From a virus: DNA of 44,531 bases. The stretch is from IMG/VR virus record IMGVR_UViG_3300031418_000028. The stretch is one strand, 5' to 3'. The notes under the pieces were generated by a model that did no database searches, was not told the origin of the DNA, and was given only the letters and a program-made list of their open reading frames with translations. Position 1 is the stretch's first letter; every line of letters begins with the position of its first letter. The position numbers and the translations under genes are program-made. Positions 128-41,033 of this stretch are shown piece after piece.

Positions 128-727
128 ATTGTTATCCAGATTGGGGATGAAACGGATGGTCATGCAATCAGCTTCCATGATAGTGATGTAAATCTGGACA
201 GCGCGGGGATTGAGCTTGAGAAAGCAAAGTTGGGTTTAGAAAAGATGCACGAGCTGTTTCCTAACCTGCTTGTTTGTGATTCCAATCATGGTAGCCTCAT
301 CTACCGTAGGGCTAAGGCTCACGGACTACCTGTGCAGTTCATTAAGAAGTACCGCGATATCTTGTTCCCGGAACATGGTTCCCCCGGCTGGAGCTGGTCA
401 GATGCGTGGGACATTACAACGCCGACTGGCGTTGTTCGATTCCAGCATCAAGTTGCAGGTGACCTACTACTGAATGCAGCGCATGAGCGCAAGAGCATGG
501 TGATTGGGCACTTCCACGGTAAATTCGATATCAACTACGCAGCCAGTAGCACAGCACTGTACTTCGGTGCGCACTGTGGCTGTCTCATTGATAACAAAAG
601 CCTAGCCTTCGCTTATGGTAAGCTCTCTCGAAGCAAGCCTATTCTAGGCGTGATGACCATTACGGAAGGGTGCCCAGCACTTGTACCGATGTTAATGAAT
701 GATTCAGGGCGGTGGGTGCACGCATGA
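1..727 (+). CDS. Calcineurin-like metallophosphoesterase, C-terminal part (continues in frame from 44157-44404; about 324 aa in total)
   Basis: The frame is open from window position 2. Motifs present: VVGDLHEPY (GDxH), IGDETDGH (GDxxD), DSNHG (GNH-like) and GHFHG. The TTG at 56 in the ORF track is internal, not the start. Confidence 0.85.
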   Translation, partial: IGDTYVPAVARRILVVGDLHEPYTHQDAYAFLKHMRDTYNPDIVIQIGDETDGHAISFHDSDVNLDSAGIELEKAKLGLEKMHELFPNLLVCDSNHGSLIYRRAKAHGLPVQFIKKYRDILFPEHGSPGWSWSDAWDITTPTGVVRFQHQVAGDLLLNAAHERKSMVIGHFHGKFDINYAASSTALYFGAHCGCLIDNKSLAFAYGKLSRSKPILGVMTITEGCPALVPMLMNDSGRWVHA

Positions 728-1977: not shown

Positions 1978-4422
1978 ATGGACTTAGAGCAGCGTCAGAT
2001 TAAGTTAGAGCAAGAGTACAGCACGCAGGGTGTGCTGGATGCATTTGCGCACTGGGAGAAAGAGCGCGATGCGGGACGCATGGCGGACACGCACATCGGA
2101 CGTACTTTAACTATTCGCCTGTACAAGCTGGTGCAGACCGAATTGGAAACAATCTGTACTGCTGGTACTCGTGGCGTTGGTGGTAAGTACCGCAACTTAA
2201 TCAAGGACGTGGGGTATGACCGCGCAGCTGTGGTCGCTATCCGCACCATCCTGCGACTGATTACCATGAAGCTGCGTGCTGACCGCACTGCACCTATCGT
2301 GCAGGATTTTGTCAGTGCTGCCGGTGAAATCATGAACATGGAGTACATGCACTTCTGCCTGCGTACCGCAGCGCCGGGGTACATGGCGCGTGTTGACCAG
2401 TACATGCAGGACAATAACACACGCTCAATCAATCACCGTAAGCGTACGCTGGTTGCCAGTGCCAATCGCATTGAAGGCGTAGAGCCTGACGACGTGCGTT
2501 GGGGCGTATCCGAGCAGAACGGCGTAGGCGGTATTCTACTGACTGCTATCCTGAATGCCGGTATTGCAGAGGCGCGTCACCTGCCTAAGAGTGGTGGACA
2601 GAGCTGGGTTGCTCTGTACCCAACGCCTGAAGTTGAGGCTAAGCTGCAAGAGCTGCTTCATAACATGCGTGCATTCATGAAGCAGCCACCAATGCTTGTC
2701 ACTCCTAAAGCACACACCCGCGATACATTATTCGGCAATGCATCGTACCTGACAGAGGAATTAGCTGCCTCTGCCCGTACTATCCACCTGCGTACCCGTA
2801 ACCGGCGCGACCTGAAAGATTGGATTCGTGCTAATATCTCGGACAGAGTATTACGTGCCGCTAATAAGGCGCAGAGTCAGCCATACCGTATCAACAAAGA
2901 ATTGGTGGGTATGCTGCGTGATATCTACAGCTCTGGTGTGTACAACGGTATCGCTGGTATCCCCAGCAACACCCCTATTACACCGCCGCCATACCCAATG
3001 TCAGAGGGTTGGGACAAGGAAGACCCGGAGTGTATTGAAGTGCATTCCGCATGGAAAGCTCTGGCTAAGGATGCGTACCGTGCCGAAGTTCAGCGCAAGG
3101 GGCATGTGCTCCAGTTCTCACTTATCACGAAGTATCTCAACACGTTCGGCGATGATACCCTGTACTTCCCCACGTACTTCGACTGGCGGGGCCGTTTGTA
3201 CTTCCGCTCCAGCATTAACCCGCAGGGCGCTGATTTCGTTAAGGCTGCTCTGGAGTTTGCGGATAAGAAGCCACTGGGCAAGCGCGGTCTGTACTGGCTC
3301 AAGGCCCATGTAGCCACTTGTTATGGATTCGACAAAGCGAACTTCGACACTCGCGCTGTGTGGACAGATACCCACATGGACCTCATCAGAGACGCTGTAA
3401 CGCACCACGTTGACTCCGAGTTCTTCCGGGGTGCAGATGCACACTGGTGCTTCTACGTCGCCGCTAAGGAGCTTGTACAGGCCTTAGATTCGGGTTCCCC
3501 AGAGACTTGGGAAACAGGTATTGCAGTAGCTATGGATGCAACATGCTCTGGTCTGCAACACTTGTCAGCTGTAATGCGTGACCCAATCGGAGGTATGTTC
3601 ACTAACCTGATGCCTAACAACGGTGTCGAGAAGGAGGATATCTACGCCGGTGTAGCGGCGCTTGCTGTCGTGAACATCCAAAAGGATAAGGAGAACCCAG
3701 AGCAGGCGCTGTTCTGGACTACGCACGGCATCCCGCGTAGCATGGCGAAGCGTCCGGTGATGACGTACACTTACGGCGGTACGCTCATGAGTTGCACAGA
3801 GTACGTGTACGTTGACATGCAGGACCGGGCACTACCGGGTATCGACAACTACAGCCCGTTCAAACTCGCTGCGTATGCCTCCAAGCATCTGCGTAAGGGT
3901 GTTGAGCAGACTGTACCTGCATCAGCCGAGTGTATGCGCTTCCTGCGCGATATAGCAAGTCGGATGCCGGTTACAGAGCCTCTGCGCTGGATTACACCTG
4001 CTGGATTCCCGGTAGTGCAGCACTACGCAGAAGAGACCTCCAGCGTCATCCGTCTGGATGCGTTGGGCATCACTGTAACTATGCGCCGCTTCGATGAGAG
4101 CCGGTTGCAGCGTAGCAAGTGTGTTAACGGTATCTCTCCGAACTTCACGCACGGGTTGGACTCCAGTCACCTCACTACGGTTATTGATGAGTCCGAGAGC
4201 AGTATCCTGCCAATTCATGATTCCTTTGGTACGTACCCAAGTGATGTGGATGCTATGCACGTAGTGCTTCGCAGGACGTTCTGTGACATGTATACCCAGC
4301 ACACACCATTGCAGAGTCTGGTGCAGTACGCCCAACCGTTCATTGAGGAAGAGATTGAGCTGCCAGCGGTCGGTAAGCTTGACATCTCTAAGGTGAAAGA
4401 CAGTCTATTCTTCATGTGTTAA
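1978..4422 (+). CDS. T7-type single-subunit DNA-dependent RNA polymerase (814 aa)
   Basis: MDATCSGLQH matches T7 DGSCSGIQH. RSMAKRPVMTYTYGGT matches T7 RSVTKRSVMTLAYGS. PIHDSFGT matches T7 HDSFGT. An SD gaggaa lies upstream. Confidence 0.97.
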   Translation: MDLEQRQIKLEQEYSTQGVLDAFAHWEKERDAGRMADTHIGRTLTIRLYKLVQTELETICTAGTRGVGGKYRNLIKDVGYDRAAVVAIRTILRLITMKLRADRTAPIVQDFVSAAGEIMNMEYMHFCLRTAAPGYMARVDQYMQDNNTRSINHRKRTLVASANRIEGVEPDDVRWGVSEQNGVGGILLTAILNAGIAEARHLPKSGGQSWVALYPTPEVEAKLQELLHNMRAFMKQPPMLVTPKAHTRDTLFGNASYLTEELAASARTIHLRTRNRRDLKDWIRANISDRVLRAANKAQSQPYRINKELVGMLRDIYSSGVYNGIAGIPSNTPITPPPYPMSEGWDKEDPECIEVHSAWKALAKDAYRAEVQRKGHVLQFSLITKYLNTFGDDTLYFPTYFDWRGRLYFRSSINPQGADFVKAALEFADKKPLGKRGLYWLKAHVATCYGFDKANFDTRAVWTDTHMDLIRDAVTHHVDSEFFRGADAHWCFYVAAKELVQALDSGSPETWETGIAVAMDATCSGLQHLSAVMRDPIGGMFTNLMPNNGVEKEDIYAGVAALAVVNIQKDKENPEQALFWTTHGIPRSMAKRPVMTYTYGGTLMSCTEYVYVDMQDRALPGIDNYSPFKLAAYASKHLRKGVEQTVPASAECMRFLRDIASRMPVTEPLRWITPAGFPVVQHYAEETSSVIRLDALGITVTMRRFDESRLQRSKCVNGISPNFTHGLDSSHLTTVIDESESSILPIHDSFGTYPSDVDAMHVVLRRTFCDMYTQHTPLQSLVQYAQPFIEEEIELPAVGKLDISKVKDSLFFMC

Positions 4423-4447
4423 TTAGAAGCAGACTTAACAGGGAGAG
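4419..4447 (+). promoter_or_regulatory. Candidate phage-RNAP promoter (copy 1 of a 25-nt exact repeat), with predicted start in GGGAGA
   Basis: ttaattagaagcagacttaacaggg at 4419-4443 is identical to 38633-38657. It is followed by gggagag, like the T7 +1 GGGAGA. It is intergenic, between the RNAP gene and the late genes. Confidence 0.6.
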
Positions 4448-4452
4448 AAGTA

Positions 4453-10028: not shown

Positions 10029-12359
10029 ATGGCCCAAGATGGCGCATTAAAGTCAATCATGCAGGGAGTGTCCCAACAAGTTCCCCGTGAGCGTCTGGAT
10101 GGGCAAGTCTCTGCACAGTTAAACAGATTATCAGATGTGGTGAATGGAAACCGCCGTAGGCCGGGTGCTCGTTACTTGGCTGAACTCGGGGTCACGTCCC
10201 AGTACGATAACCGTGTATTCGCAACGTACGCCGACGTAGGCGATGCTGCAAATCACATCATTGTGAACACGGAGACAGGTGAGCTGCGGGTACTAGCCGA
10301 AGATTTCGGCACAGTACTGCATGCATCTACCCAGAGCTATTTGGTGGCCTCTTCTGCGGCAGCATTACAGACGGCATCCCTTCGTGGGCACCTGTACATC
10401 GCTAATACCGAGAAAGCACCCGCCGTACTGCATGGCACAACTAACCAGAAGGACCCCAGTAAAACCGGGTTCCTGTTCGTGCTGACACCCGCCTTTGCAA
10501 AGGATTATGACGTAACTATATCCAATGCGGCGGGTACCTTCACGTACACTTACACTACGCCGAAAGGCACAGACCCGGACGATGCTAACCTAGCTAAACC
10601 CGCCTTTATTATCGGACAGCTGGCGGCGCTAATTAACACACACACGGCAACACGTGGGGTTTCAGCAAACCAGTATGAAGCGTACCTGTTTCTATCATCA
10701 ACTTCCGGGCCACTGGTTGTAAGTACCAACGCAGGTGCTACCTACATGATAGGCAGTAATAACTCCCGTGTGGCCTTGTCTACACAGCTCCCGGCGAGGC
10801 TGCCAGATATAGCAGATGGTATTCTGTGTGCTGTGGGAACATCATCCAAGAATTTTATATGGTATCAGTACTACGCATCCGAGGCAGTGTGGAAGGAGGC
10901 CGGTGCTTACGGCAGTCCAACTGGCTTGTCGAATATGCCCATCCGCATCTCTCTTGACGGTCTGTACACAGTGGAGACCCCCGCTTACGAAGGTAGGCTT
11001 GCTGGCTCAGATGACACGAACGAGGACCCCGGCTTTATCGAGAATGGTCTTACAGGCTTTGGTGCATTCCAAGGTAGGTTGGTCATTCTAGCCGGTCCAG
11101 AGGTCTGTATGAGCGCTGCCGGTAATCCACTACGCTGGTACAGAAGCACAGTCACATCCCTGCTCACCGAGGATAGCATTAATATCTACTCCGGTGCTGC
11201 TACGAGTACGAACTTCAGACATTGCGTGCAGTTTAACAAAGACCTGCTACTGTTCTCCCGGTCTTGTCAGGCAGTAATCCCTAGCGGCAATGCAGCGATT
11301 ACCCCGCAGACCGCACAGATTGTTATCACATCCTCGTACACAACAGATACTTTATCTCAGCCTACACCCGTGGGACGGTCCGTTCTGTACAGCATGCCAC
11401 GCACGGAGTCCTTTGCTGGTGTGCTGGAGCTAATACCGAGTAACACTACGGACTCTCAGTACACGTCCAACGATATTACCGCGCATATTCCCCGGTATCT
11501 TCCGGGTAGTATCCGCAGCATCACGGCAAGTACCACATCGAACTCCAGTCTGTTCATCTGCACCGGGGATAATCGAAGTGTGTTTCTGCAAGACTACTTG
11601 TGGTCCGGTGATGAGAAGGTACAGTCTGCGTGGCATCAGTGGACGCTACCGCACCCTGTGGCATGCGCATGGTTTGTTCGAGACCGCGTGTACATAGCGA
11701 TGAGGGATGGCACAAGTATGTACGTAGTCACCATAGAGCCACAGGCGGGTTTAACGCTGAATGCTCTGACACGACCATTCTCAGATGTGTACACTCAGGT
11801 AACGGTAAGTAACCGTGAGTTCACCCTGCCTCAACATCTACGTTCTATGTACTCAGCGGGAGTTTCTCTCCTACTGACGTTTGCTGATGGAGACATGGGC
11901 GGCATGGCTGCCGGTATCGAATCTGTGGATACTACGACGTGGGTTGTTACCACGGTGCGTAATGTTCCGAATGGACAGTACTTCGTGGGCACCAAGTACA
12001 GCTCTGTGCTTACACCTACGCCACCTCTTGTGCGTGACGCTAACGGCGTGGTGATTGGTACTAGTCGCACTATGCTGACGCGGTATGAGTTGACCCTGAA
12101 GGATTCTGGTGAGTTCCAAGCTACCATCACGGATAGCTCGCGTACACTCACAGATGGGACTTATAACAGTCTGGTGTACAGTAGCACAGAGTTGCTGCCG
12201 AACTCACCTACCGTAGCCTCACTGGGACGCTGTATCATCCCGGTGCGTGCGCAGGCACAGACGACTGTTGCTACCTTTGAAACGGATGAGGATAACGACT
12301 TATGTATCCTTGATATTGAGTACGTGCTACAGTACAGAGCCAGAAGGAGACGAGTATGA
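10029..12359 (+). CDS. Tail tubular protein B (776 aa)
   Basis: Position and size correspond to T7 gp12. TAAGGAG junction upstream. Confidence 0.8.
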   Translation: MAQDGALKSIMQGVSQQVPRERLDGQVSAQLNRLSDVVNGNRRRPGARYLAELGVTSQYDNRVFATYADVGDAANHIIVNTETGELRVLAEDFGTVLHASTQSYLVASSAAALQTASLRGHLYIANTEKAPAVLHGTTNQKDPSKTGFLFVLTPAFAKDYDVTISNAAGTFTYTYTTPKGTDPDDANLAKPAFIIGQLAALINTHTATRGVSANQYEAYLFLSSTSGPLVVSTNAGATYMIGSNNSRVALSTQLPARLPDIADGILCAVGTSSKNFIWYQYYASEAVWKEAGAYGSPTGLSNMPIRISLDGLYTVETPAYEGRLAGSDDTNEDPGFIENGLTGFGAFQGRLVILAGPEVCMSAAGNPLRWYRSTVTSLLTEDSINIYSGAATSTNFRHCVQFNKDLLLFSRSCQAVIPSGNAAITPQTAQIVITSSYTTDTLSQPTPVGRSVLYSMPRTESFAGVLELIPSNTTDSQYTSNDITAHIPRYLPGSIRSITASTTSNSSLFICTGDNRSVFLQDYLWSGDEKVQSAWHQWTLPHPVACAWFVRDRVYIAMRDGTSMYVVTIEPQAGLTLNALTRPFSDVYTQVTVSNREFTLPQHLRSMYSAGVSLLLTFADGDMGGMAAGIESVDTTTWVVTTVRNVPNGQYFVGTKYSSVLTPTPPLVRDANGVVIGTSRTMLTRYELTLKDSGEFQATITDSSRTLTDGTYNSLVYSSTELLPNSPTVASLGRCIIPVRAQAQTTVATFETDEDNDLCILDIEYVLQYRARRRRV

Positions 12360-21330: not shown

Positions 21331-23148
21331 ATGCAGGAGCGTAAGCTGCGAAGATTAACCATGATTGCAAACAGCATTCGTGAGTGGGCAGACCGCCCTG
21401 CTAGTATGCCCGCTGATTTACGGGAAGAGTACGGGTACATGATGCAGGCCGTGTTCAGTGAGTTTGAAGACTTCGCTGACCTCGGTATGCGCTTCCTCGG
21501 ATTTGACCTCACTGATATGCAGCGGGACATTGCCCGGTACATGCAGTACGGTCCGCGGCTGAGCATGGTGGCAGCCCAGCGTGGTGAGGCAAAGAGTACC
21601 CTAGCAGCACTGTTTGCTGTGTGGTCACTCATTCAAGACTGGGACCATCATATACTGATTGTGTCCGGAGGTGAGGCTCAGGCATCTGAGGTCGCATCGT
21701 TGGTCATCCGTATCATTGAGCAGTGGAGTATCCTGTGCTACTTACGGCCTGATAAGAGCCGCGGTGACCGTACATCGTATGAGCACTATGATATCCACGT
21801 AGACCTCAAGCCTATCAACAAATCACCTAGTGTGGCTTGTGTAGGTATTACAGCATCATTGCAGGGTAAACGTGCTAAGCTGCTTATCCCGGACGATATT
21901 GAGACTACGAATAACGGACTTACTGCATCCAGCCGTGAGACGCTGCTGTTACGCTCGAAGGAGTTCGCGGCAATCAACACGCACGGCAAGATTCTGTACC
22001 TCGGTACACCCCAGACTAAGGACAGTATTTACCGCACACTGGTGGGCCGTGGTTACGAGATGCGTATCTGGCCCGGACGTGTACCTACCCCAGAGGAAGA
22101 GCAGCGCTACGGTGCTACACTGGCCCCGTATATTCTGGATATGATTCAGGCGGGTGTTGCTCGGACTGGCTTCGGTATAGATGGTAAGCGTGGCCCAGTG
22201 ACAGACCCGCAGCGCTACTCTGAGAAAGATTCGGATGAGAAGGAACTGGACTTTGGACCGGAAGGCTATCAACTACAGTACATGCTGGATACCAGCCTGT
22301 CTGATGCCCAGCGTACCCGCATTAAGCTCTCAGACGCTATTGTAGCGGCATTAGGGACCGATGCTGCACCAGACACCTTGTATTATGCAGCGGCCCCACA
22401 GAATCGCGTACAGAGCGTTCCTGACGTTATTAGTCAGGAGATTCTGTATAATGTAGCAGGCACCGGTAGTATGATGCTTCCGTACCAGCACAAGGTTATG
22501 ATTGTGGACCCGGCAGGTAATGGTGGGGATGAGGTAGCATTCGCATGTGGCGGAGCACTGAACTCGTACATACACCTGTTCGGGGTGGGTGGATTACAGG
22601 GTGGGCTGATTGAAGAGAACTGTAATCAGCTTATTGACTACTGTGAAGAGTTCGGCATCACCGATATCGTTATGGAATCGAACATGGGTCACGGTACAGC
22701 AAGTATGGTCTTGCTGAACGTACTGGCTAAAAGGAAGTTACCCGGCATAGGTGTGCGTGATATCTATGCTAAAGGACAGAAGGAGCGGCGTATCATTGAT
22801 ACACTGAGCCCAGTGTTCCGACGTCATAAGTTCGTAATCCACGAGCGAGCTATTGAGATGGATGCGGAATACTACAACCGCTACAGTCGAGATAAGCGCG
22901 CACTGTACTCACTGTTCTTCCAGTTGGCTGGCATCACCTACGACCGCGGTTCCCTTGCTAAAGATGACCGCGCTGATGCTGTTGCACATCTGGTTAATGA
23001 ACTCAAAGGCTTCATCAGTGTTGATGAAGATAAGGAGGCACAGAAAGAACAGGATAAACTCGTCAAGGCGTTCCTCGCCAACCCTATGGGGTACACCAAC
23101 CAGAATACCCGTAGGCCCATCCGGGGCACACGGCACAGACTACACTAA
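21331..23148 (+). CDS. Terminase large subunit (605 aa)
   Basis: ATPase-like AAQRGEAKST and LLIPDDIE (Walker B-like). Size and position correspond to T7 gp19. Confidence 0.85.
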   Translation: MQERKLRRLTMIANSIREWADRPASMPADLREEYGYMMQAVFSEFEDFADLGMRFLGFDLTDMQRDIARYMQYGPRLSMVAAQRGEAKSTLAALFAVWSLIQDWDHHILIVSGGEAQASEVASLVIRIIEQWSILCYLRPDKSRGDRTSYEHYDIHVDLKPINKSPSVACVGITASLQGKRAKLLIPDDIETTNNGLTASSRETLLLRSKEFAAINTHGKILYLGTPQTKDSIYRTLVGRGYEMRIWPGRVPTPEEEQRYGATLAPYILDMIQAGVARTGFGIDGKRGPVTDPQRYSEKDSDEKELDFGPEGYQLQYMLDTSLSDAQRTRIKLSDAIVAALGTDAAPDTLYYAAAPQNRVQSVPDVISQEILYNVAGTGSMMLPYQHKVMIVDPAGNGGDEVAFACGGALNSYIHLFGVGGLQGGLIEENCNQLIDYCEEFGITDIVMESNMGHGTASMVLLNVLAKRKLPGIGVRDIYAKGQKERRIIDTLSPVFRRHKFVIHERAIEMDAEYYNRYSRDKRALYSLFFQLAGITYDRGSLAKDDRADAVAHLVNELKGFISVDEDKEAQKEQDKLVKAFLANPMGYTNQNTRRPIRGTRHRLH

Positions 23149-25029: not shown

Positions 25030-26502
25030 ATGATTAGTCTAGTGAAGGTGCATGCAGCGTTTGTGCGCTTTAAGTCCGCACTGTCAGGTGCGGTGGAAAG
25101 GACGTTAGCCAGCATTCTGGGTGAGCGTCCCTCCCTCAAAGACTTTGGCGCAGTAGGCGATGGTGTAGCGGACGACACTGCGGCTTTACAGGCGGCAGTG
25201 AATGCTTGTCTGGGCAAGGACGTTACGCTGTACGTTCCCGCTGGCAAGTACAAGATTACGAGCAAGGTTAATATCCCACTGGGTTCGGTGACGCACCTGT
25301 GCATCGCCGGGGCTGGTACACATCAGAGTACGTTCCAAGTGTATGGCGCGCAGGAACTATTCAACATCACTGGTGACTTCGGGAACTACTGGCTAAACAC
25401 CGTTACTCCGAATGGTAGCTTCGAGATGAATGATGTGACCATTTCCTGCTTCGGTGGTAAAGATAACGTAGGGACAGCCCTTCGCTTCGATATGGGTAGT
25501 CAGCTAGGTCGCCCTAACCACGGCCTGCGGTTCCGTAACGTAACCATCAAGACAGAGGTTGGGTACTTCGCGTACGGTATCCTGTTCAGTAACTGTGCCC
25601 AGATTAACTTGGATAGCTGTCGATTCTTCTCTGGTAATGGTGTGCAGTCTGGTATCGGTATCCTCGGTCAGTGTAGTGAGGGTCAGGATGGCGGCGGTAT
25701 GTTCGTGAACAACTGTGAGTTCTTCTTCTACGAGCACGGTATCTACGTGAAAGACCGCTTCGAAGGGACGTACATCACAAGCTCCGCGTTCATTAACTGC
25801 AAGTACGGTACAACTGCGGTCGAAGCTGGTTCTGAGTCTGGTATGCTTATCACGAACTCTGAGTACGACTGCATGAGCGAAGGCATCCACTTCGAGGGCA
25901 TGTTTGACTTCGTTATCACCGGTAACTGCTTCTTGGGTATCGACTCCGACTCACAGATTGCCATCTTCATTAAGAACGGCGCTGGGTTCACGATTACCGG
26001 GAATAAGATTCAGGGTGTGCTGCCTACGAATGGTAGTGGTATTGTACTGGAAGATACGAACGATTCGCTTGGTCGCGCATCATACGTCGGTGGTAACGCC
26101 ATCGGTACAGTGAACATCGGCATGAGTATCAAAGATTGTAAGAACATCACGTTCGGTCCTTGGGCGTGGAAAGACTGCACCTCGGATACACAGGCGTTCG
26201 GTACGAACACGTTCATCCAGCAGAGCTGCTACGAGAAGACAACTTCACTTGTCCAGACACTCAGTGCAAGCACAAGCGCATGGACTATCTCTATCGATAT
26301 CTCTGATATGCGTCTGAGCCGTATTCCGAAGTTCGCTACTCTGGTAAGTAACAGTGCGAACAACATGAATGCTAGGTATGATTACTCAAGCAGCTCTGTG
26401 AACACGGTTGTGTTCGTGGTGACGCTGGGTACTGGTGCAGCACTTACTCCGAACCCGTACCGGTTCAGCCTGAGTGTGCGTCAGCCATTCTTTGATATCT
26501 AA
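25030..26502 (+). CDS. Tailspike / putative polysaccharide depolymerase with a pectate-lyase-3-type beta-helix (490 aa)
   Basis: LKDFGAVGDGVADDTAALQAAVNA is the hallmark N-cap of pectate_lyase_3 and tailspike beta-helices. Repetitive N/G/I/T-rich beta-helix rungs follow. It is the last late gene, as in KP34-like phages. Confidence 0.8.
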   Translation: MISLVKVHAAFVRFKSALSGAVERTLASILGERPSLKDFGAVGDGVADDTAALQAAVNACLGKDVTLYVPAGKYKITSKVNIPLGSVTHLCIAGAGTHQSTFQVYGAQELFNITGDFGNYWLNTVTPNGSFEMNDVTISCFGGKDNVGTALRFDMGSQLGRPNHGLRFRNVTIKTEVGYFAYGILFSNCAQINLDSCRFFSGNGVQSGIGILGQCSEGQDGGGMFVNNCEFFFYEHGIYVKDRFEGTYITSSAFINCKYGTTAVEAGSESGMLITNSEYDCMSEGIHFEGMFDFVITGNCFLGIDSDSQIAIFIKNGAGFTITGNKIQGVLPTNGSGIVLEDTNDSLGRASYVGGNAIGTVNIGMSIKDCKNITFGPWAWKDCTSDTQAFGTNTFIQQSCYEKTTSLVQTLSASTSAWTISIDISDMRLSRIPKFATLVSNSANNMNARYDYSSSSVNTVVFVVTLGTGAALTPNPYRFSLSVRQPFFDI

Positions 26503-26648
26503 GGGTAGGCTCTGAGGGGTGGGAGGTGCACGTTCTATGGGCTAGTGAATTTTACTTCACCCACCCGAGTGCCTCCCTCCACTCAACAACGCCCCCTTTC
26601 CCCCGTGGCCCTCTGCGCTGCACTGTGTGGCTGGGGAGGGGTTGGGCC

Positions 26649-26663
26649 TCCTCTCTCTCTATA
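26649..26663 (+). repeat. 15-nt direct repeat TCCTCTCTCTCTATA, copy 1 (copy 2 at 27092-27106)
   Basis: Exact match read by eye. A 12-nt version TCCTCTCTCTCT also lies at 26716-26727. Confidence 0.9.
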
Positions 26664-27091
26664 GCGTGCGCGTGCGGTGTAGCTCGCGTGCGTGCTGCGC
26701 GTTCATCTCCTCGGCTCCTCTCTCTCTCACTGTGTGTGTGTCCACTCCTCGCCCTCGCACCTGTCGGTGCTCGTGCTCGTCGTGTCGTGCTCGCCTGCTC
26801 TCTCTCTCTCGTGTGTGCTTCGCTGCGTTCGGTGGTGTGTGCTGGGTGTGCTCTCGTGTGCACTTGCTTTCTTCGCGTACTGGTACTGGCTTGCTTTGTT
26901 TGCCTCCTACGTGTGGCTTGCTTCTCTCACTGTATCATCCGGTCTCTCTCTCTACGCTCTGACTCTCTCCTCCTGTCGGTTCATCCTCTTAGGTTCCTTC
27001 ACCGGTCGTCGTTCGTCGCTCTCTGCGTTCGTGCTCAGCACTCGCTCTGTCGTCACTTGCTCTGGCTCTCATTCTTCTAGCCTTCGTTCGT

Positions 27092-27106
27092 TCCTCTCTC
27101 TCTATA
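27092..27106 (+). repeat. 15-nt direct repeat TCCTCTCTCTCTATA, copy 2
   Basis: Exact match to 26649-26663, 443 bp downstream. It marks the right edge of the A-depleted tract. Confidence 0.9.
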
Positions 27107-27178
27107 TAGTCTGCTTTTAAATGAACACTAGGTAAATCATATACTTACCAATTTCTTTGAATATTCTTTTAAAAGTGC

Positions 27179-27207
27179 TTGCGTTCCTAGTTTGGTTAGT
27201 CCAATAT
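27179..27207 (+). promoter_or_regulatory. Candidate host sigma70 early promoter P1
   Basis: TTGCGT-N17-CAATAT, preceded by the AT-rich atttctttgaatattcttttaaaag (UP-element-like). Confidence 0.45.
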
Positions 27208-27285
27208 GTATCTCAACGGGGCAGCACTGAGAAGTGTAGCCGGTTGGATAGGTAGATGGGTTGACGGTCTGATTCAACAAGTGTG

Positions 27286-27315
27286 TTGACAGATGCTAAG
27301 AAACTAAGTTACCAT
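27286..27315 (+). promoter_or_regulatory. Candidate host sigma70 early promoter P2
   Basis: Consensus -35 TTGACA, an 18-nt spacer, then TACCAT. Confidence 0.5.
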
Positions 27316-27345
27316 CCACTCCTAGTAGTACAGAAGGAAAGCAGT

Positions 27346-27534
27346 ATGCAGATAACGTGTAAGCAACGTAGGTTGTTCAAGCGGTTAAGAAAGGAATTGC
27401 AAGGGTTAGAAAATAAATCCTTGACAGTTCAGCAAGCAAGACGTAAGCTGAGTATCAAGTTAACACTGAGCGGTACAGAGCCTTACTACGGTAAGCTTCG
27501 CGGTGATAACAAGGTACAAAGTGTTTGGAAGTAA
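27346..27534 (+). CDS. Possible first early protein (62 aa, very basic)
   Basis: ATG with gaaggaaag 5 nt upstream, just downstream of P2. It contains P3 internally, so coding status is uncertain. Confidence 0.35.
   Translation: MQITCKQRRLFKRLRKELQGLENKSLTVQQARRKLSIKLTLSGTEPYYGKLRGDNKVQSVWK
27421..27449 (+). promoter_or_regulatory. Candidate host sigma70 early promoter P3
   Basis: Consensus -35 TTGACA, a 17-nt spacer, then TAAGCT. Confidence 0.55.
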
Positions 27535-27774
27535 CCAGCTTTGCGGTGACTTACTAGCTCCTTAATCGGTGCCATGATGTGAGAATCCTAGATAAGCCGG
27601 GTAGTACTCGAAAGCCCACAGCGTTAAGTCGTGAGCTGGCGCGCTGAAACCCTGCGCCATAATAGAATAGGGTTGAGCGGTGAACCACACCGTCCACGGT
27701 TGTGCAGTGGGAGACAAGGTTAAGCGTGAGTATCTCATACTGGGGTACTCACCATTAACTTTACAGGTGATAGC

Positions 27775-27966
27775 ATGGGATACGCTAAGAAGCTACAGAG
27801 ACAGTTCGACGGGTTAGCAGCACTAACCGGAGGCACACTTCAGAAGCGCCGGGATAAGTTGAACCGGGCAGGTGTTCATCACAAGGTAGAGACAGCCACC
27901 TTCAGCACTCATGTGAAGGGCGTACAGAAGCGCAAAGGCTCAAGCAAGCCACCACGTCCACTTTAA
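27775..27966 (+). CDS. Hypothetical early protein (63 aa, Lys/Arg-rich)
   Basis: ATG after aggtga. Preceded by a roughly 230-nt structured leader. Confidence 0.55.
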   Translation: MGYAKKLQRQFDGLAALTGGTLQKRRDKLNRAGVHHKVETATFSTHVKGVQKRKGSSKPPRPL

Positions 27967-28046
27967 GATTAAACAGCCTACAGCGTCTTACAGGGCGCTG
28001 TGTGAAGTTCAATCCGAAGCAACTAAATCAACCAATGAGGTGTACC

Positions 28047-28601
28047 ATGACTTTTAAATTAATCGCTCTTAAATCAATCCGTAGCCAGCTCACTAAGGCT
28101 GTCACCCTGAAACGTGAAGTGACTATCTCTGCATTGTTCCATGGCTTAGTAGCCAGCAACGTAGCATTCGCTTTCGATATGAAACGCGAAGATGCGGCGG
28201 ACTTTGATACCGTGCTGCGTCAACTCCTGCCTATCAGCTTCGATAAGAAGATGAATGGGTACAAGTTCGACGATAAGAAAGCATTCAAGTCTGCTGAAGG
28301 GCTGGGCGTGGACTTACAGGCTGTGCGTGCTGCTTTCAAAGCAGCCGATGAAGCAGGCCGCGCTGTGCTGGTGCAGGCGTTCTACGACAGCGTGATGGCG
28401 TACTACAACGCTAATGCAGCGGCTAAGAAGGCAGACGACCTCACCTCCGATGATAAGCGCATGAACGCCCTGAGCAAGATTAAAGCAGGCGTTAAGGCCG
28501 CGAAAGACAACGGCGCTACCGACCGCGATATCGTGGATATGCTGCTGGGCATGGGCGTTGATGTGTCTGGCGCACTGGTTATCATGCCGGTGGCCGCATG
28601 A
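28047..28601 (+). CDS. Hypothetical early protein (184 aa, Ala-rich, helical)
   Basis: ATG with the gaggtg SD shared by neighbouring early genes. The track start at 28002 is a GTG without an SD. Confidence 0.65.
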   Translation: MTFKLIALKSIRSQLTKAVTLKREVTISALFHGLVASNVAFAFDMKREDAADFDTVLRQLLPISFDKKMNGYKFDDKKAFKSAEGLGVDLQAVRAAFKAADEAGRAVLVQAFYDSVMAYYNANAAAKKADDLTSDDKRMNALSKIKAGVKAAKDNGATDRDIVDMLLGMGVDVSGALVIMPVAA

Positions 28602-38636: not shown

Positions 38637-38661
38637 TTAGAAGCAGACTTAACAGGGGAGA
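38633..38661 (+). promoter_or_regulatory. Candidate phage-RNAP promoter (copy 2 of the 25-nt exact repeat)
   Basis: 38633-38657 is identical to 4419-4443 and is followed by ggggaga. It lies upstream of the DNA polymerase gene. Confidence 0.6.
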
Positions 38662-38705
38662 TGATATACTTTCTCTATTAGTCATATAATCTAAGAGATT
38701 ATACT

Positions 38706-41033
38706 ATGTATAAGATATTAGTTTGGGATATTGAAACTCAGACACATCCTTGGTATGGAAATGTAGCAAGCTCCTTTAATCCAGATAACTATATAGTAGC
38801 CTCTGGTTATAGGTTAGACACTGTTGATGATGCAGGGCAGGTACATGTAGGTAATACGCAGTATGTGTACTACAACTCTAAGGAAGAGTTCTTATCCGCA
38901 CCAGTAACTCAGTGGTTACCAATTGAACCTAACGTGAACGTGGTAGTAGCCCATAATAGCCAGTTTGAGATTAAGTGGGCATTAACACACGGGCGCAATG
39001 TGCTCGAAGAGTTCCTCAAGCGTGGTGGGCGTATTGCATGTACTGCTATGGCTGAGTACCTGCTGAGTCACCAGCAGGAGCTGTACCCGTCATTGAGTGA
39101 AACCGCTGTTAAGCATGGCGGTACGCACAAGGTAGACGGTGTTAAAGTTCTATGGGAAGCGGGTGTACTAACCTCCGAGATTGACAAGGACCTGCTGATT
39201 GAGTACCTCGCCGGACCTAGCGGTGATATCGACAATACAGCGATTAGCTTCTACGACCAGCAGCGACAGCTTGCAGAAGCCGGTATGTCGAGCATGTACT
39301 GGGAGCGTTGTGACGCGCTGCTAGCCTTTGCGTACTGTGAGTGGTTCGGCCTGTACGTCAACCGTGATGTAGCGGAACGTAACCTAGCGGCACAGGAAGC
39401 AGAGATTGCTGATCTTCAGAAGGAGCTGTACAAACTGCTGCCTACGGACTTACCAGAAGCGCTGGAGTTCAACTGGGGTAGTGATTACCACATGTCAGCG
39501 CTGGTGTATGGTGGACCTGTTAAGTACCGGCACCGTGTGCCGTATGACCCGCCACAGTATGTAAAAGCTGACTTCTACAAAGGCTGTGCGGATAAGTTAA
39601 TCCCGGTTGGGGAAGAACAAGAGTGGGACTTGCCGTACCTCACCCGATATGCATCTGGCAAGAACAAAGGTCAGCTCAAGGTGTTCCGGGAGGACACTGA
39701 TGAAGAGAAACTCAAGTGGGAAGAAACCTCTGTGCAGCTTCCGGGACTGGTCAACCTTAGTGCGTTGCCAGACGGAGTGCGTGAGAAGTACATCGGTAAG
39801 CGCGCAGAGTTCAAAGGAGCACGTACGCTGTGTGATGGTGTCACGCCTGTGTACAGCACATCAACAGATGCGCTCAAGGGTCTCAAGAACTTTGTGCCTG
39901 AAGTTGCTCTCATGGTTAAGCTCGCGAGTTTAGAAAAGGATACGGGAGCTTTCTATCGGCGTGTAGAGTACAACGCCGACGGTTCAGTCAAGAAGGAGAG
40001 CGGCCTCCTACAGTACGTAGGCCCGGATGGTATTGTACATCACAGCTTGAATGCAACGGCAACAGTTACCACCCGACTGAGCGCATCTAAACCGAATATG
40101 CAGCAGATACCGAGGGACGGTACATCCAAGGTGAAGGAAATGTTCAGCTCTCGGTTCGGTGCAGGCGGTCGGGTAGTTGAGGTAGATTATTCCGCACTAG
40201 AAGTGGTTATGTTGTGTGCTATCACCAAGGACACAGACCTACTGAATCTGCTTCTGAACAATACAGATATGCACTGCTATCGCCTCGCCTTCCAGTTAGG
40301 TGAGGAGTACTCCGATGTGTATGAGAAGTGTCACAATGAGAGCCACCCAGAGCATAAGCGATACAAGCAGATGCGTACTGATGTGAAACCTCTATCCTTC
40401 GCCGACCAGTACGGAGCTTCTGCTGAGGGTATCGCATTCAACGTAGGTTGTACTGTGGAGTTTGCTCAACAGTTCCAAGAGAACGAGATGAAACTCTTCC
40501 CTATATCTCGTGGTTATCGCAAGGTTATTGCAGATGAGGTTGAGCGTACAGGTAATCTACCGGGTAGTATACATCGGGAACAGACTGATGGTGGACTATG
40601 GCGCGTGTACAGGAGGGGTTATTTCACTGGCCCAAGTACAACCCGCTATAGCTTCAGACAACACCCCGTATGGGATAAAGAAACTCGACAAGAAGTAATG
40701 TCTTATAAAGCTACTCAGATGGCGAATTACCCCATGCAAGGTGACGCCAGCTTTATGATGAGTACAGCTATGGGACGTATCTGTAGGTGGTTAATTCAGA
40801 ATGATTGGTTTGGGGGCACTGTGTGCTTGATTAACAACGTCCATGACTGTTGTCACCTAGACTGTGCTAACCCGGATATAGCTCTGACAGCAGGCCGTGG
40901 TATCAAGTCCATTATGGAGGATATGCCTAGGTACCTTACAGAGAAATTCCCAGCATTTGATATGGCGGATGTTCCGTTCCCGGCAGCGATGGAGATAGGA
41001 ACGAACTTAATGGATAAGGCACATGCAGAGTAA
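38706..41033 (+). CDS. Family A DNA polymerase with 3-prime-5-prime exonuclease domain (775 aa)
   Basis: Exo motifs VWDIETQT and HNSQFEIKW. Pol motif A VEVDYSALEVV, motif B KPLSFADQYGAS, NYPMQGD, and motif C NNVHDCC. Confidence 0.95.
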   Translation: MYKILVWDIETQTHPWYGNVASSFNPDNYIVASGYRLDTVDDAGQVHVGNTQYVYYNSKEEFLSAPVTQWLPIEPNVNVVVAHNSQFEIKWALTHGRNVLEEFLKRGGRIACTAMAEYLLSHQQELYPSLSETAVKHGGTHKVDGVKVLWEAGVLTSEIDKDLLIEYLAGPSGDIDNTAISFYDQQRQLAEAGMSSMYWERCDALLAFAYCEWFGLYVNRDVAERNLAAQEAEIADLQKELYKLLPTDLPEALEFNWGSDYHMSALVYGGPVKYRHRVPYDPPQYVKADFYKGCADKLIPVGEEQEWDLPYLTRYASGKNKGQLKVFREDTDEEKLKWEETSVQLPGLVNLSALPDGVREKYIGKRAEFKGARTLCDGVTPVYSTSTDALKGLKNFVPEVALMVKLASLEKDTGAFYRRVEYNADGSVKKESGLLQYVGPDGIVHHSLNATATVTTRLSASKPNMQQIPRDGTSKVKEMFSSRFGAGGRVVEVDYSALEVVMLCAITKDTDLLNLLLNNTDMHCYRLAFQLGEEYSDVYEKCHNESHPEHKRYKQMRTDVKPLSFADQYGASAEGIAFNVGCTVEFAQQFQENEMKLFPISRGYRKVIADEVERTGNLPGSIHREQTDGGLWRVYRRGYFTGPSTTRYSFRQHPVWDKETRQEVMSYKATQMANYPMQGDASFMMSTAMGRICRWLIQNDWFGGTVCLINNVHDCCHLDCANPDIALTAGRGIKSIMEDMPRYLTEKFPAFDMADVPFPAAMEIGTNLMDKAHAE

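Follow-up and report, generated by a model that had tools for sequence, protein, structure and literature searches.

In LUZ19, a phage of the phiKMV type, a cap-selective long-read RNA study placed five host-type promoters at the left genome end, as well as phage-polymerase promoters that have a 20-bp motif in common and lie in the structural region and immediately downstream of the polymerase gene (Putzeys et al. 2024, PMC10914365). The promoter P001 has the opposite orientation: its antisense transcripts pass over the genome end to reach the late genes, and conservation extends to 15 further Phikmvvirus species; in the sections searched, no mention of the base composition of the leader was found (PMC10914365). 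In KP34, a leader promoter at 475-490 is in the forward orientation and was validated in vitro (Lu et al. 2019, PMC6834552). For CB5, a terminal repeat of 287 bp was inferred by its authors from a read depth of more than 2x, and the repeat of PhiM1 is listed at 293 bp (PMC6115819). Here, we describe the corresponding region in the IMG/VR virus record IMGVR_UViG_3300031418_000028 (44,531 nt; the whole of this stretch is referred to as the window), in which a tract of about half a kilobase, at 26591-27100, contains almost no adenine on the plus strand. This tract very probably represents, judging from its alignment with related genomes, the direct terminal repeat, present as one collapsed copy, followed by an untranslated leader at the left genome end, and its inner border coincides with a predicted leftward promoter of the phage RNA polymerase.

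Between positions 26591 and 27100 (510 nt), the plus strand contained 26 A, 176 C, 129 G and 179 T, i.e., 5.1% A compared with a window mean of 25.3%, and 28 A were counted when the interval was extended to 27106. The initial annotation, which had reported by hand count about 26 A (about 5%) and flanks without such depletion, was confirmed on both points: a sliding-window scan placed the lowest-A 500-nt segment of the whole sequence at a start of 26590 (5.2% A, z = -6.7), markedly under the mean, and the counts per 100 nt from 26576 were 9, 5, 1, 8 and 7, then 27, 20 and 37, with normal flanks. The 102-nt run without any A that it had noted at 26760-26861 (plus strand; words GTGCTCG, GTGTGC and (CT)6) was exact, and the longest A-free run elsewhere in the window measured 29 nt. 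All five runs of at least four CT units in the whole window were located inside the tract (26651, 26718, 26798, 26944 and 27094), in agreement with the (CT)5-6 runs first described, whereas the plural used for the (GT)4-5 runs was slightly overstated, as the window holds a single run of at least four GT units (26732-26741, in the tract). Moreover, A represented 22.9% of the 4-fold degenerate sites and 21-28% of all other intergenic gaps. The depletion is thus local rather than a product of the mutational equilibrium of the genome; a genome-wide mutation bias was rejected as its cause on these grounds. The A depletion of the tract is therefore local and far beyond chance.

Leader A content was then compared across 17 genomes. 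The window was the most extreme of these, with 6.3% A over 537 nt (baseline 25.1%), an AT skew of -0.69 and 31% purines, and it is the most extreme case of late-polymerase autographivirus leaders built nearly without A on one strand. The other A-poor leaders were those of PP16 (6.6%), LKA1 (7.6%), PPWS1 and phiKMV (7.8% each), LUZ19 (8.2%), PhiM1 (11.0%), RSB1 (12.5%), LIMElight (13.2%), KP34 (14.7%) and BF25/12 (14.8%), with values of 16.8% for SP6 and 18.2% for K1-5 (baseline 29%). A-poor leaders were observed in 11 of the 12 late-RNA-polymerase genomes, LKA1, LUZ19 and RSB1 included, and the left end was the genome-wide A minimum in all seven complete genomes of this type that were scanned (PhiM1, PP16, PPWS1, BF25/12, phiKMV, LIMElight and, more weakly, KP34). 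The leaders of T7 and T3 were G-poor, not A-poor, and those of gh-1 and VP93 were unbiased.

In an alignment of six Corkvirinae, both the conserved columns (3.5-7.8% A) and the variable columns (6.8-16% A) were A-poor; composition is thus kept where sequence is not. The A-free filler at 26760-26861, for instance, could not be aligned across relatives, yet the corresponding DNA was A-poor in every one of them. The idea that A is kept only in functional motifs was rejected, given that 6 of the 34 A fell in conserved columns versus 160 of the 503 other bases. Across the genomes compared, the adenine bias is a lineage-wide trait and is not peculiar to this phage. This lineage-wide depletion, and its coincidence with a reverse promoter in three lineages (see below), appear to be undescribed in the open-access literature that we searched. 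In LKA1 (positions 1-474; leader with 7.6% A), the word CCTGGT, itself part of a longer word of the CCCTGGT type, was present eight times around the right repeat edge.

The tract is located after the tailspike stop codon (26502) and before the first sigma-70-like promoter candidates (from 27116). Its position had initially been matched to the terminal repeat and concatemer junction of T7-like phages, and this location was borne out by both edges, which match the annotated repeats of CB5, PhiM1, PP16 and PPWS1; the extent was not, since the predicted repeat covers only about 300 of the approximately 530 nt. Upstream of the repeat, alignment with CB5, PhiM1, PP16, PPWS1 and BF25/12 delimited a right-unique genome end (26503-26575, plus strand) between the tailspike stop codon and the repeat. 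It closes with a pre-repeat junction motif, ...CCCGAGTGCCTC in the window and ...ACTCAAGCGAGGGCCTC in relatives, and includes a potential hairpin (GGGGTGGG...CCCACCC) that was not significant when compared with shuffled sequences (z = -1.1). The left edge is nearly invariant in relatives, where ...ACTCAAGCGAGGGCCTC is followed by CCTCCACTCA (GCCTC, then CCTCCACTCA); in the window, ...CCCGAGTGCCTC is followed by CCTCCACTCAAC, which places the predicted left terminus at 26576, or at 26574 if the cut is made as in PhiM1.

At the right edge, a motif (CTTGCTTTCTTCG) was common to the window and the annotated repeats of CB5, PhiM1, PP16 and PPWS1. Since the window carries three copies of this CTTGCTT(T/C) motif on the plus strand (26863-26875, 26890-26902 and 26917-26933), the end of the repeat was placed between 26863 and 26879, for a predicted length of about 288-304 bp (listed as 26576-26875, by homology of both edges to annotated repeats). 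Relatives have repeats of 247 to 472 bp, with annotated lengths of 366 bp in PP16 and 247 bp in PPWS1. In every late-polymerase lineage examined (PhiM1, CB5, PPWS1, PP16, KP34, phiKMV, LKA1 and LIMElight), the right edge was found in or beside a repeated CTTGC(T/C)T motif; the corresponding place in T7 and SP6 is occupied by the polymerase pause signal (T)ATCTGTT. The interior of the repeat could not be aligned between genera, and close relatives differed by microsatellite-type changes. A CCCCC-NNN-GGGGG hairpin about 25 nt inside the repeat, conserved in relatives, was degenerate in the window (CCCCCGTGGCCC), and the fold of 26576-26660 was no better than those of shuffled sequences (z = +0.6).

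The leader proper (26876-27102, minus strand) extends over about 230 nt after the repeat, would be present at the left genome end only and is homologous to the post-repeat DNA of relatives; its plus strand is C/T-rich and low in A and G alike. At its end, the block CTCATTCTTC...TTCGTTCGTTCCTCTCTCT-TATAG was the only one conserved enough to be detected by blastn, and the conserved block within the leader was delimited at 27067-27102 (minus strand, GAGAGAGAGGAACGAACGAAGG...GAAGAATGAG). Beyond it begins an AT-rich early-promoter region (27116-27315, plus strand), with sigma-70-like candidates at 27116-27145 and 27286-27315.

Two minor observations concern the repeat edges. The record of PP90 (KX278419) shows a terminal redundancy of about 392 nt, starting 14 nt before and ending about 90 nt after the limits of the CB5/PhiM1 repeat, which probably reflects overlap in the assembly rather than the physical repeat. 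In addition, the Chi-like words GGTGGTG and GCTGGGTG were present near the right edge of the repeat, at 26826-26848 in the window and also in phiKMV, BF25/12, PP16 and PPWS1; the word of BF25/12 (GCTGGTGT) is one mismatch from GCTGGTGG, and the orientation of these words is suited to a RecBCD entering from the right genome end.

The leftward promoter was recognized from the DNA located just past the RNA polymerase stop codon, which was aligned in five Corkvirinae. This alignment uncovered a conserved T7-like element that co-varied, lineage by lineage, with a minus-strand block at the border of the tract. In the window, the forward copy TAGAAGCAGACTTAACAGGGAGAGAAGTA (4424-4452, plus strand) is located directly past the RNA polymerase stop codon, two bases after the gene end at 4422, and is the reference for this promoter class; a second forward copy, TAGAAGCAGACTTAACAGGGGAGATGATA (38638-38666, plus strand), lies upstream of the DNA polymerase gene, the consensus of the forward copies being TAGAAGCAGACTTAACAGGG(A/G)GA. 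The border element, a predicted leftward promoter of the phage RNA polymerase whose direction is opposite to that of all the genes, is located at 27103-27127 on the minus strand (TGTTCATTTAAAAGCAGACTATATA, then GAGAGAGAGG), with a predicted start at about 27102 (G). It matched the element after the polymerase gene at 22 of 29 positions, compared with at most 20 for shuffled queries, and the core AAGCAGACT occurred in the window only at 4427 (+), 38641 (+) and 27116 (-). The A-poor zone ended within a few nucleotides of the predicted start, with 2, 2, 1, 2, 2 and 1 A per 25 nt, then 8, 10 and 8.

Co-variation of the border element was observed in PP16, PPWS1, BF25/12 and PhiM1, and every Corkvirinae genome examined showed this arrangement. 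The element after the polymerase gene and the one at the border read, respectively, TAGAAGCAGACTTAACAGGGAGAG and TAAAAGCAGACTATATAGAGAGAG in the window, CCATAGAACGACACTTATAAGGGGAG and CCATAGAACGACACTATAAGAGAGAG in PPWS1, and TTAGAATATCACTTGGAAGGGGAG and TTAGAATATCACTATAGGAGAGAG in BF25/12. Relatives carried two to five forward copies of lineage-specific versions of the promoter, and in six out of six genomes the sole minus-strand copy of the core was the one at the leader border, for a chance expectation of 0.01-0.7 per strand. Thus, the only reverse copy was found at 521 in PP16 (core ACGACACT; five forward copies), at 466 in PPWS1 (five forward copies), at 10302 in BF25/12 (core AATATCACT; four forward copies), at 538 in LIMElight (core ACGTTATAGAG, its annotated promoter; three forward copies) and at 728 in phiKMV (three forward copies). 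LUZ19 carried the same motif as phiKMV at 748 on the minus strand, which fits the published P001, and in both phages this position is the inner border of the A-poor zone. The leader promoter is forward in KP34, T7 and T3 (phiOL in the last two), and depletion is weakest or nonexistent in these phages. On the basis of these motif matches, a reverse phage promoter at the border of the tract is likely. The promoter consensus of this phage group appears to be undescribed in the open-access literature that we searched, in which the CB5 paper names no promoters.

Other motifs were less convincing. CTCTCTCTATAG was rejected as a genome-wide promoter as it was restricted to the tract, and a plain ACTATA core, resembling those of T7 and SP6, was rejected because it did not recur in the forward orientation. 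Inside the repeat, a weaker promoter-like element is a candidate at 26647-26680 on the minus strand (CGCACGCTATA, then GAGAGAGAGGAGG); its start region, TATA-GAGAGAGAGG, is that of the border promoter, whereas its upstream specificity region is different. We also observed that BF25/12 bears divergent phage promoters at the leader border, one (10302, minus strand) directed into the leader and the other (10391, plus strand) into the early genes, whereas the window has the leftward promoter only.

Compared with these described systems, the locus does not represent a new kind of system: the element is an autographivirus terminal repeat and leader homologous to those of CB5 and PhiM1, and a reverse promoter has already been described for Phikmvvirus. 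As in the Phimunavirus and Kotilavirus phages (CB5, PhiM1, PP16 and PPWS1), the repeat follows the tailspike gene, its left edge, right-edge motif and leader-end block are homologous, and the plus strand of the leader is A-poor (6.6-11% in those phages). It differs from them in its unalignable interior, in having the most extreme A depletion, in its degenerate hairpin and in that its ends are predicted by homology. As in LUZ19 and phiKMV, a single reverse promoter for the phage's own polymerase is located at the inner border of the A-poor zone, with forward copies after the polymerase gene, and the leftward transcript, which runs over the repeat in LUZ19, is predicted to do likewise here. The promoter sequences themselves are unrelated (GGTTATGTCACACACA versus TAGAAGCAGACTTAACAGGG), and the start site and antisense reads are experimental in LUZ19, whereas those of the window are predicted. 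The antisense promoter P001, recently reported and unexplained, is now linked to a measurable sequence property. KP34 shares with the window a phage promoter copy in the leader a few hundred nucleotides past the repeat, a related genome organisation and an early protein family (PHROG phrog_5277), but its promoter is forward and A is only weakly depleted (14.7%), mainly within the repeat.

The junction of T7, whose repeat measures 160 bp, resembles that of the window in its architecture: the motif before the repeat includes an AATTTT-type stretch, a hairpin (degenerate in the window) lies some 25 nt into the repeat, (CT)n(GT)n sequence occupies the right edge, short words are over-represented beside the repeat, and about 500 nt of leader precede the host promoters. 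A GTGTCTCTCTGTGTCCCT-like stretch had been attributed to the T7 left end; in T7, GTGTCTCTCTGTGTCCCT is indeed present, but it marks the right edge of the repeat (about 143-160) and not the extreme left. The two phages differ in that the T7 leader is A-rich and G-poor (16.8% G) and in that CTTGCTT-type repeats take the place of the T7 pause signal ATCTGTT in the window. Moreover, transcription of the T7 junction by the phage polymerase is linked to packaging (phiOR, pause site CJ), but both this transcription and the leader promoter phiOL are directed rightward. We know of no settled account, for the T7 family, of how the repeat is duplicated and cut, or of what the arrays flanking it and the leader (about 500 nt) do.

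Transcription from the predicted border promoter would be templated by the whole A-poor stretch, from 27102 down to 26576. The predicted run-off RNA (27102 to 26576) is 527 nt long, starts with GAGAGAGAGGAACGAACGAAGG and contains 185 G, 182 A, 129 C and 31 U. As a consequence of the plus-strand A depletion, this leftward RNA is U-poor and purine-rich (5.9% U, 70% purine), with a longest U-run of 2. Transcription would stop by run-off at the end of a unit-length genome, 527 nt from the start, whereas on a concatemer it would continue across the junction into the late genes. Pausing and termination of single-subunit phage polymerases depend on U-rich RNA, as in the class I and class II signals of T7, and a template without A would let the leftward polymerase run unimpeded to, or across, the junction. 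This polymerase would meet no U-tracts for pausing or termination and would form an unusually stable RNA:DNA hybrid, whereas a polymerase reading rightward through from the late genes would produce a U/C-rich RNA and a weak hybrid, so that the junction may act as a one-way gate for transcription. Calculated energies follow this asymmetry: hybrid minus duplex energy over the tract ranged from -30 to -42 kcal/mol per 200 nt for the leftward RNA and from +4 to +19 kcal/mol per 200 nt for the rightward RNA. By the leftward value, no other place in the genome favours a hybrid as strongly, whichever the direction (z = -4.4), and the same extreme was found in phiKMV.

Among the available readings, this backward transcription explains the one-strand bias best, as a prediction to which we would give a probability of roughly 0.5. 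That the A depletion is functionally tied to the leftward transcript is a tentative conclusion, for which we would not quite claim even odds. A likely purpose would be to recruit the phage polymerase, perhaps together with a persistent hybrid, to the concatemer junction so that ends can be processed and DNA packaged; the reverse promoter may in this way provide junction transcription as the mirror image of T7 phiOR, and the arrangement would also keep late read-through out of the early genes. That the transcript has a specific role in the processing of the junction, or acts via a persistent hybrid, is doubtful at present. We infer that the promoter may fire in this phage, that composition may have been selected for the leftward transcript and that this transcript may have a role. 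The predictions are concrete, namely a U-poor run-off RNA of 527 nt and a strongly directional hybrid stability.

Several points weigh against this interpretation. In this phage, as in the other Corkvirinae, the promoter is a motif match alone. Promoter orientation and depletion are linked by a gradient, with no sharp division, as KP34, with its forward promoter, has 14.7% A compared with 13.2% and 14.8% for LIMElight and BF25/12, whose promoters are reverse; moreover, the repeat of KP34 is still its A minimum. No reverse promoter was found in SP6, K1-5 and RSB1, which are moderately A-poor (RSB1 offered no promoter motif to search with), nor was any reverse copy of the annotated putative promoters detected in the 8 kb of LKA1 examined, in spite of its 7.6% A. 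The reverse promoter is present in only about three independent lineages, and the comparison falls short of statistical power. On its right, the A-poor zone moreover gives way at this same point to the AT-rich host-promoter region, and its sharp edge therefore does not single out the transcription start site as the cause. The nearest-neighbour energies (RNA:DNA hybrid minus DNA duplex) were computed with the values of Sugimoto 1995 and SantaLucia 1998, and both the hybrid-stability and the folding results follow from composition and cannot identify what was selected. Finally, the authors of the LUZ19 study propose another role for the antisense RNA, i.e., blocking read-through into the early genes (PMC10914365); this block and a role at the junction are compatible.

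Among the other explanations, the one that survives best is a packaging platform, in which an array of short asymmetric words without A would bind the small terminase or an end-processing protein, in the manner of the CCTAAAG arrays on either side of the T7 repeat, and the depletion would be a by-product. Several leader words were over-represented compared with dinucleotide shuffles, such as CTCTCT (18 versus 5.3) and TGTGTG (6 versus 0.8) in the window, and each lineage had words of its own (CCTGGT in LKA1, 8 versus 0.4; GCTGGG in LIMElight, 8 versus 1.0; CCTAAA in T7, 11 versus 0.7), to which GTGTGC and GCGTGC in the window, GGCTAT in LIMElight and CCTAAAG in T7 can be added. The edges of the repeat also bear conserved motifs. 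Nevertheless, no regular array was detected: Tandem Repeats Finder returned nothing, and repeat families were weak. Compared with the SRL and SRR short-repeat arrays of T7, which are compact and contain about ten or more copies of one heptamer, the architecture of the window is similar and its words are enriched, but there is neither a single heptamer nor regular spacing. Moreover, the unalignable filler between motifs was equally A-poor (6.8-16% A), and a platform leaves unexplained why lineages with different words avoid the same base on the same strand. As the origin of the bias, this reading is unlikely, although it is compatible with backward transcription and not exclusive of it; the conserved blocks could plausibly form a platform for packaging or for the terminase, but this does not explain the composition.

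The U-poor, purine-rich antisense RNA might form a persistent hybrid over the leader and the repeat that would open the repeat and serve as a signal or primer for repeat duplication and for terminase recruitment at concatemer junctions. We consider this quite unlikely; if true, it would imply a transcription-driven maturation of ends common to late-polymerase autographiviruses, in a mirror image of phiOR and CJ in T7.

Structure-free single strands are a further, still less probable, target of selection: the bias would prevent self-folding while 3' tails anneal into concatemers and during strand displacement at repeat duplication. As single-stranded DNA, 26876-27112 was the least structured region of the window on both strands (-11.0 and -13.5 versus about -31 ± 5.5 kcal/mol), and the repeat folded about 22 kcal/mol more weakly than a symmetric sequence of equal G+C. 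A comparable extreme was observed at or just after the repeat in phiKMV, LKA1 and T7 (in T7 by depletion of G, not A), and a weaker one in PhiM1, PP16, PPWS1 and LIMElight. However, the property was absent in KP34, SP6, VP93 and RSB1, and was strongest outside the repeat, where no single-stranded intermediate is known. Low structure also follows mathematically from any strand skew, and omitting G or C would remove structure better.

A neutral origin would require no selection, the filler having grown by slippage and expansion from the (CT)n and (GT)n seeds that T7-family repeats carry at their edges, combined with a mutation bias both local and strand-specific. Microsatellite-type differences do exist between close relatives, since PhiM1 carries about 30 nt of (GT)n at a place where CB5 shows GCGTGTG variants, and the variability of repeat length among relatives points in the same direction. 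Most of the tract is not pure microsatellite, however, and neutral decay of (GT)n and (CT)n should yield A (through G-to-A changes) about as often as C, whereas C is abundant and A rare. In addition, neutral sites elsewhere have 21-28% A, and the bias persists across lineages that have no alignable sequence, which makes this origin highly improbable.

Restriction-site avoidance, proposed in the initial annotation, fared worse. According to this idea, the DNA entering first would be stripped of A against adenine-dependent restriction-modification and related systems, before any anti-defence gene is expressed. In T7, about 850 bp enter before transcription takes over, the A-poor zone spans the terminus to the first promoter, and a strand free of A forces asymmetric A-containing sites into one orientation. 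Yet palindromes were no rarer than composition predicts: 4-mers containing A or T were at half of the genome level, as expected (11 versus 8.8 ± 2.8), 6-mers containing A or T numbered 4 for 2.5 expected and a genome mean of 4.9, i.e., at the genome average, and 11 GC-only 4-mer sites were present. GATC-type sites are largely excluded from the tract, as had been stated, but this absence is uninformative, because GATC is avoided genome-wide. Besides, the promoters and first genes are exposed equally early and are A-rich, and T7 and T3 enter in the same way with A-rich leaders, so that defence avoidance seems scarcely credible as a cause of the bias. The avoidance of GATC, a word that occurs twice in the 44,531 nt for about 170 expected, is an observation in its own right; it is known for T7-type phages.

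Non-B DNA, with (CT)n.(AG)n and alternating purine-pyrimidine runs forming triplex or Z-DNA in replication or packaging, is very improbable, for although six of the eight homopurine or homopyrimidine runs of at least 12 nt in the window lie in the tract, all as pyrimidines on the plus strand, and alternating GT/GC runs reach about 50 nt in CB5 and PhiM1, the pure runs here are short (at most 14 nt), alternating runs of at least 10 nt are not enriched (3 of 49) and such structures depend on negative supercoiling, which is not retained at a free linear end.

Protein coding was rejected as well. Three forward open reading frames (ORFs) cover the tract (26526-27080, 26627-26962 and 26692-27120), with another on the minus strand (26552-26863). 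None of the four matched Pfam, the product would be of low complexity and rich in Leu, Ser, Cys, Arg and Val, and relatives carried indels, not multiples of three, that break the frame; the forward ORFs had already been taken for artefacts of composition, a view that these results uphold. A conserved minus-strand ATG within GAAGAATGAG opens no conserved ORF, as PhiM1 has a stop at codon 4 (by eye). Public gene calls in these leaders are artefacts of composition, such as that at 26526-27080 in the window and CB5_01 (CB5 450-617, minus strand), which straddles the reverse promoter. A described structured RNA was also rejected, since no Rfam match was obtained at E <= 1 over 26300-28100 and the strands of the tract are unusually unstructured as single-stranded DNA.

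With respect to the rest of the genome, gene order and PHROG matches indicate that the window is a circularly assembled, circularly permuted autographivirus of the phiKMV type, belonging to the Corkvirinae. The genes for the DNA polymerase (38706-41033), RNA polymerase (1978-4422), portal, capsid, tail, internal virion proteins, terminase (21331-23148), lysis and tailspike (25030-26502) are followed by the tract and by small early genes, the late position of the RNA polymerase gene being the same as in phiKMV according to ORF order and PHROG matches. The nearest annotated relatives were Corkvirinae phages of Pectobacterium and Dickeya, with about 81% identity for the terminase and about 70% for one early protein. 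A near-identity DNA search of a phage collection returned no close relative of the window, and a protein scan of IMG/VR combined with a DNA-pattern scan for further relatives returned only known isolates and one chance match. The sole other assembly found, Logan SRR8871578_40575, was the same circular contig, opened within the endolysin gene, and the use of contig ends as a proxy for physical ends was rejected on this account. The likely physical ends predicted here could serve to re-orient such circular assemblies, the promoter consensus could be applied to this phage group, and the recurrent false gene calls in leaders can now be flagged.

Outside the tract, a 240-nt gap without any ORF was observed at 27535-27774. 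Part of it (27635-27759) was 85.6% identical to an unannotated stretch of the otherwise unrelated Salmonella phage KKP 3828 (OR067835, 1729-1852), and the gap contains a strong stem-loop at 27716-27762 (z = -2.5), with no Rfam match; this element may be a conserved regulatory RNA or a terminator.

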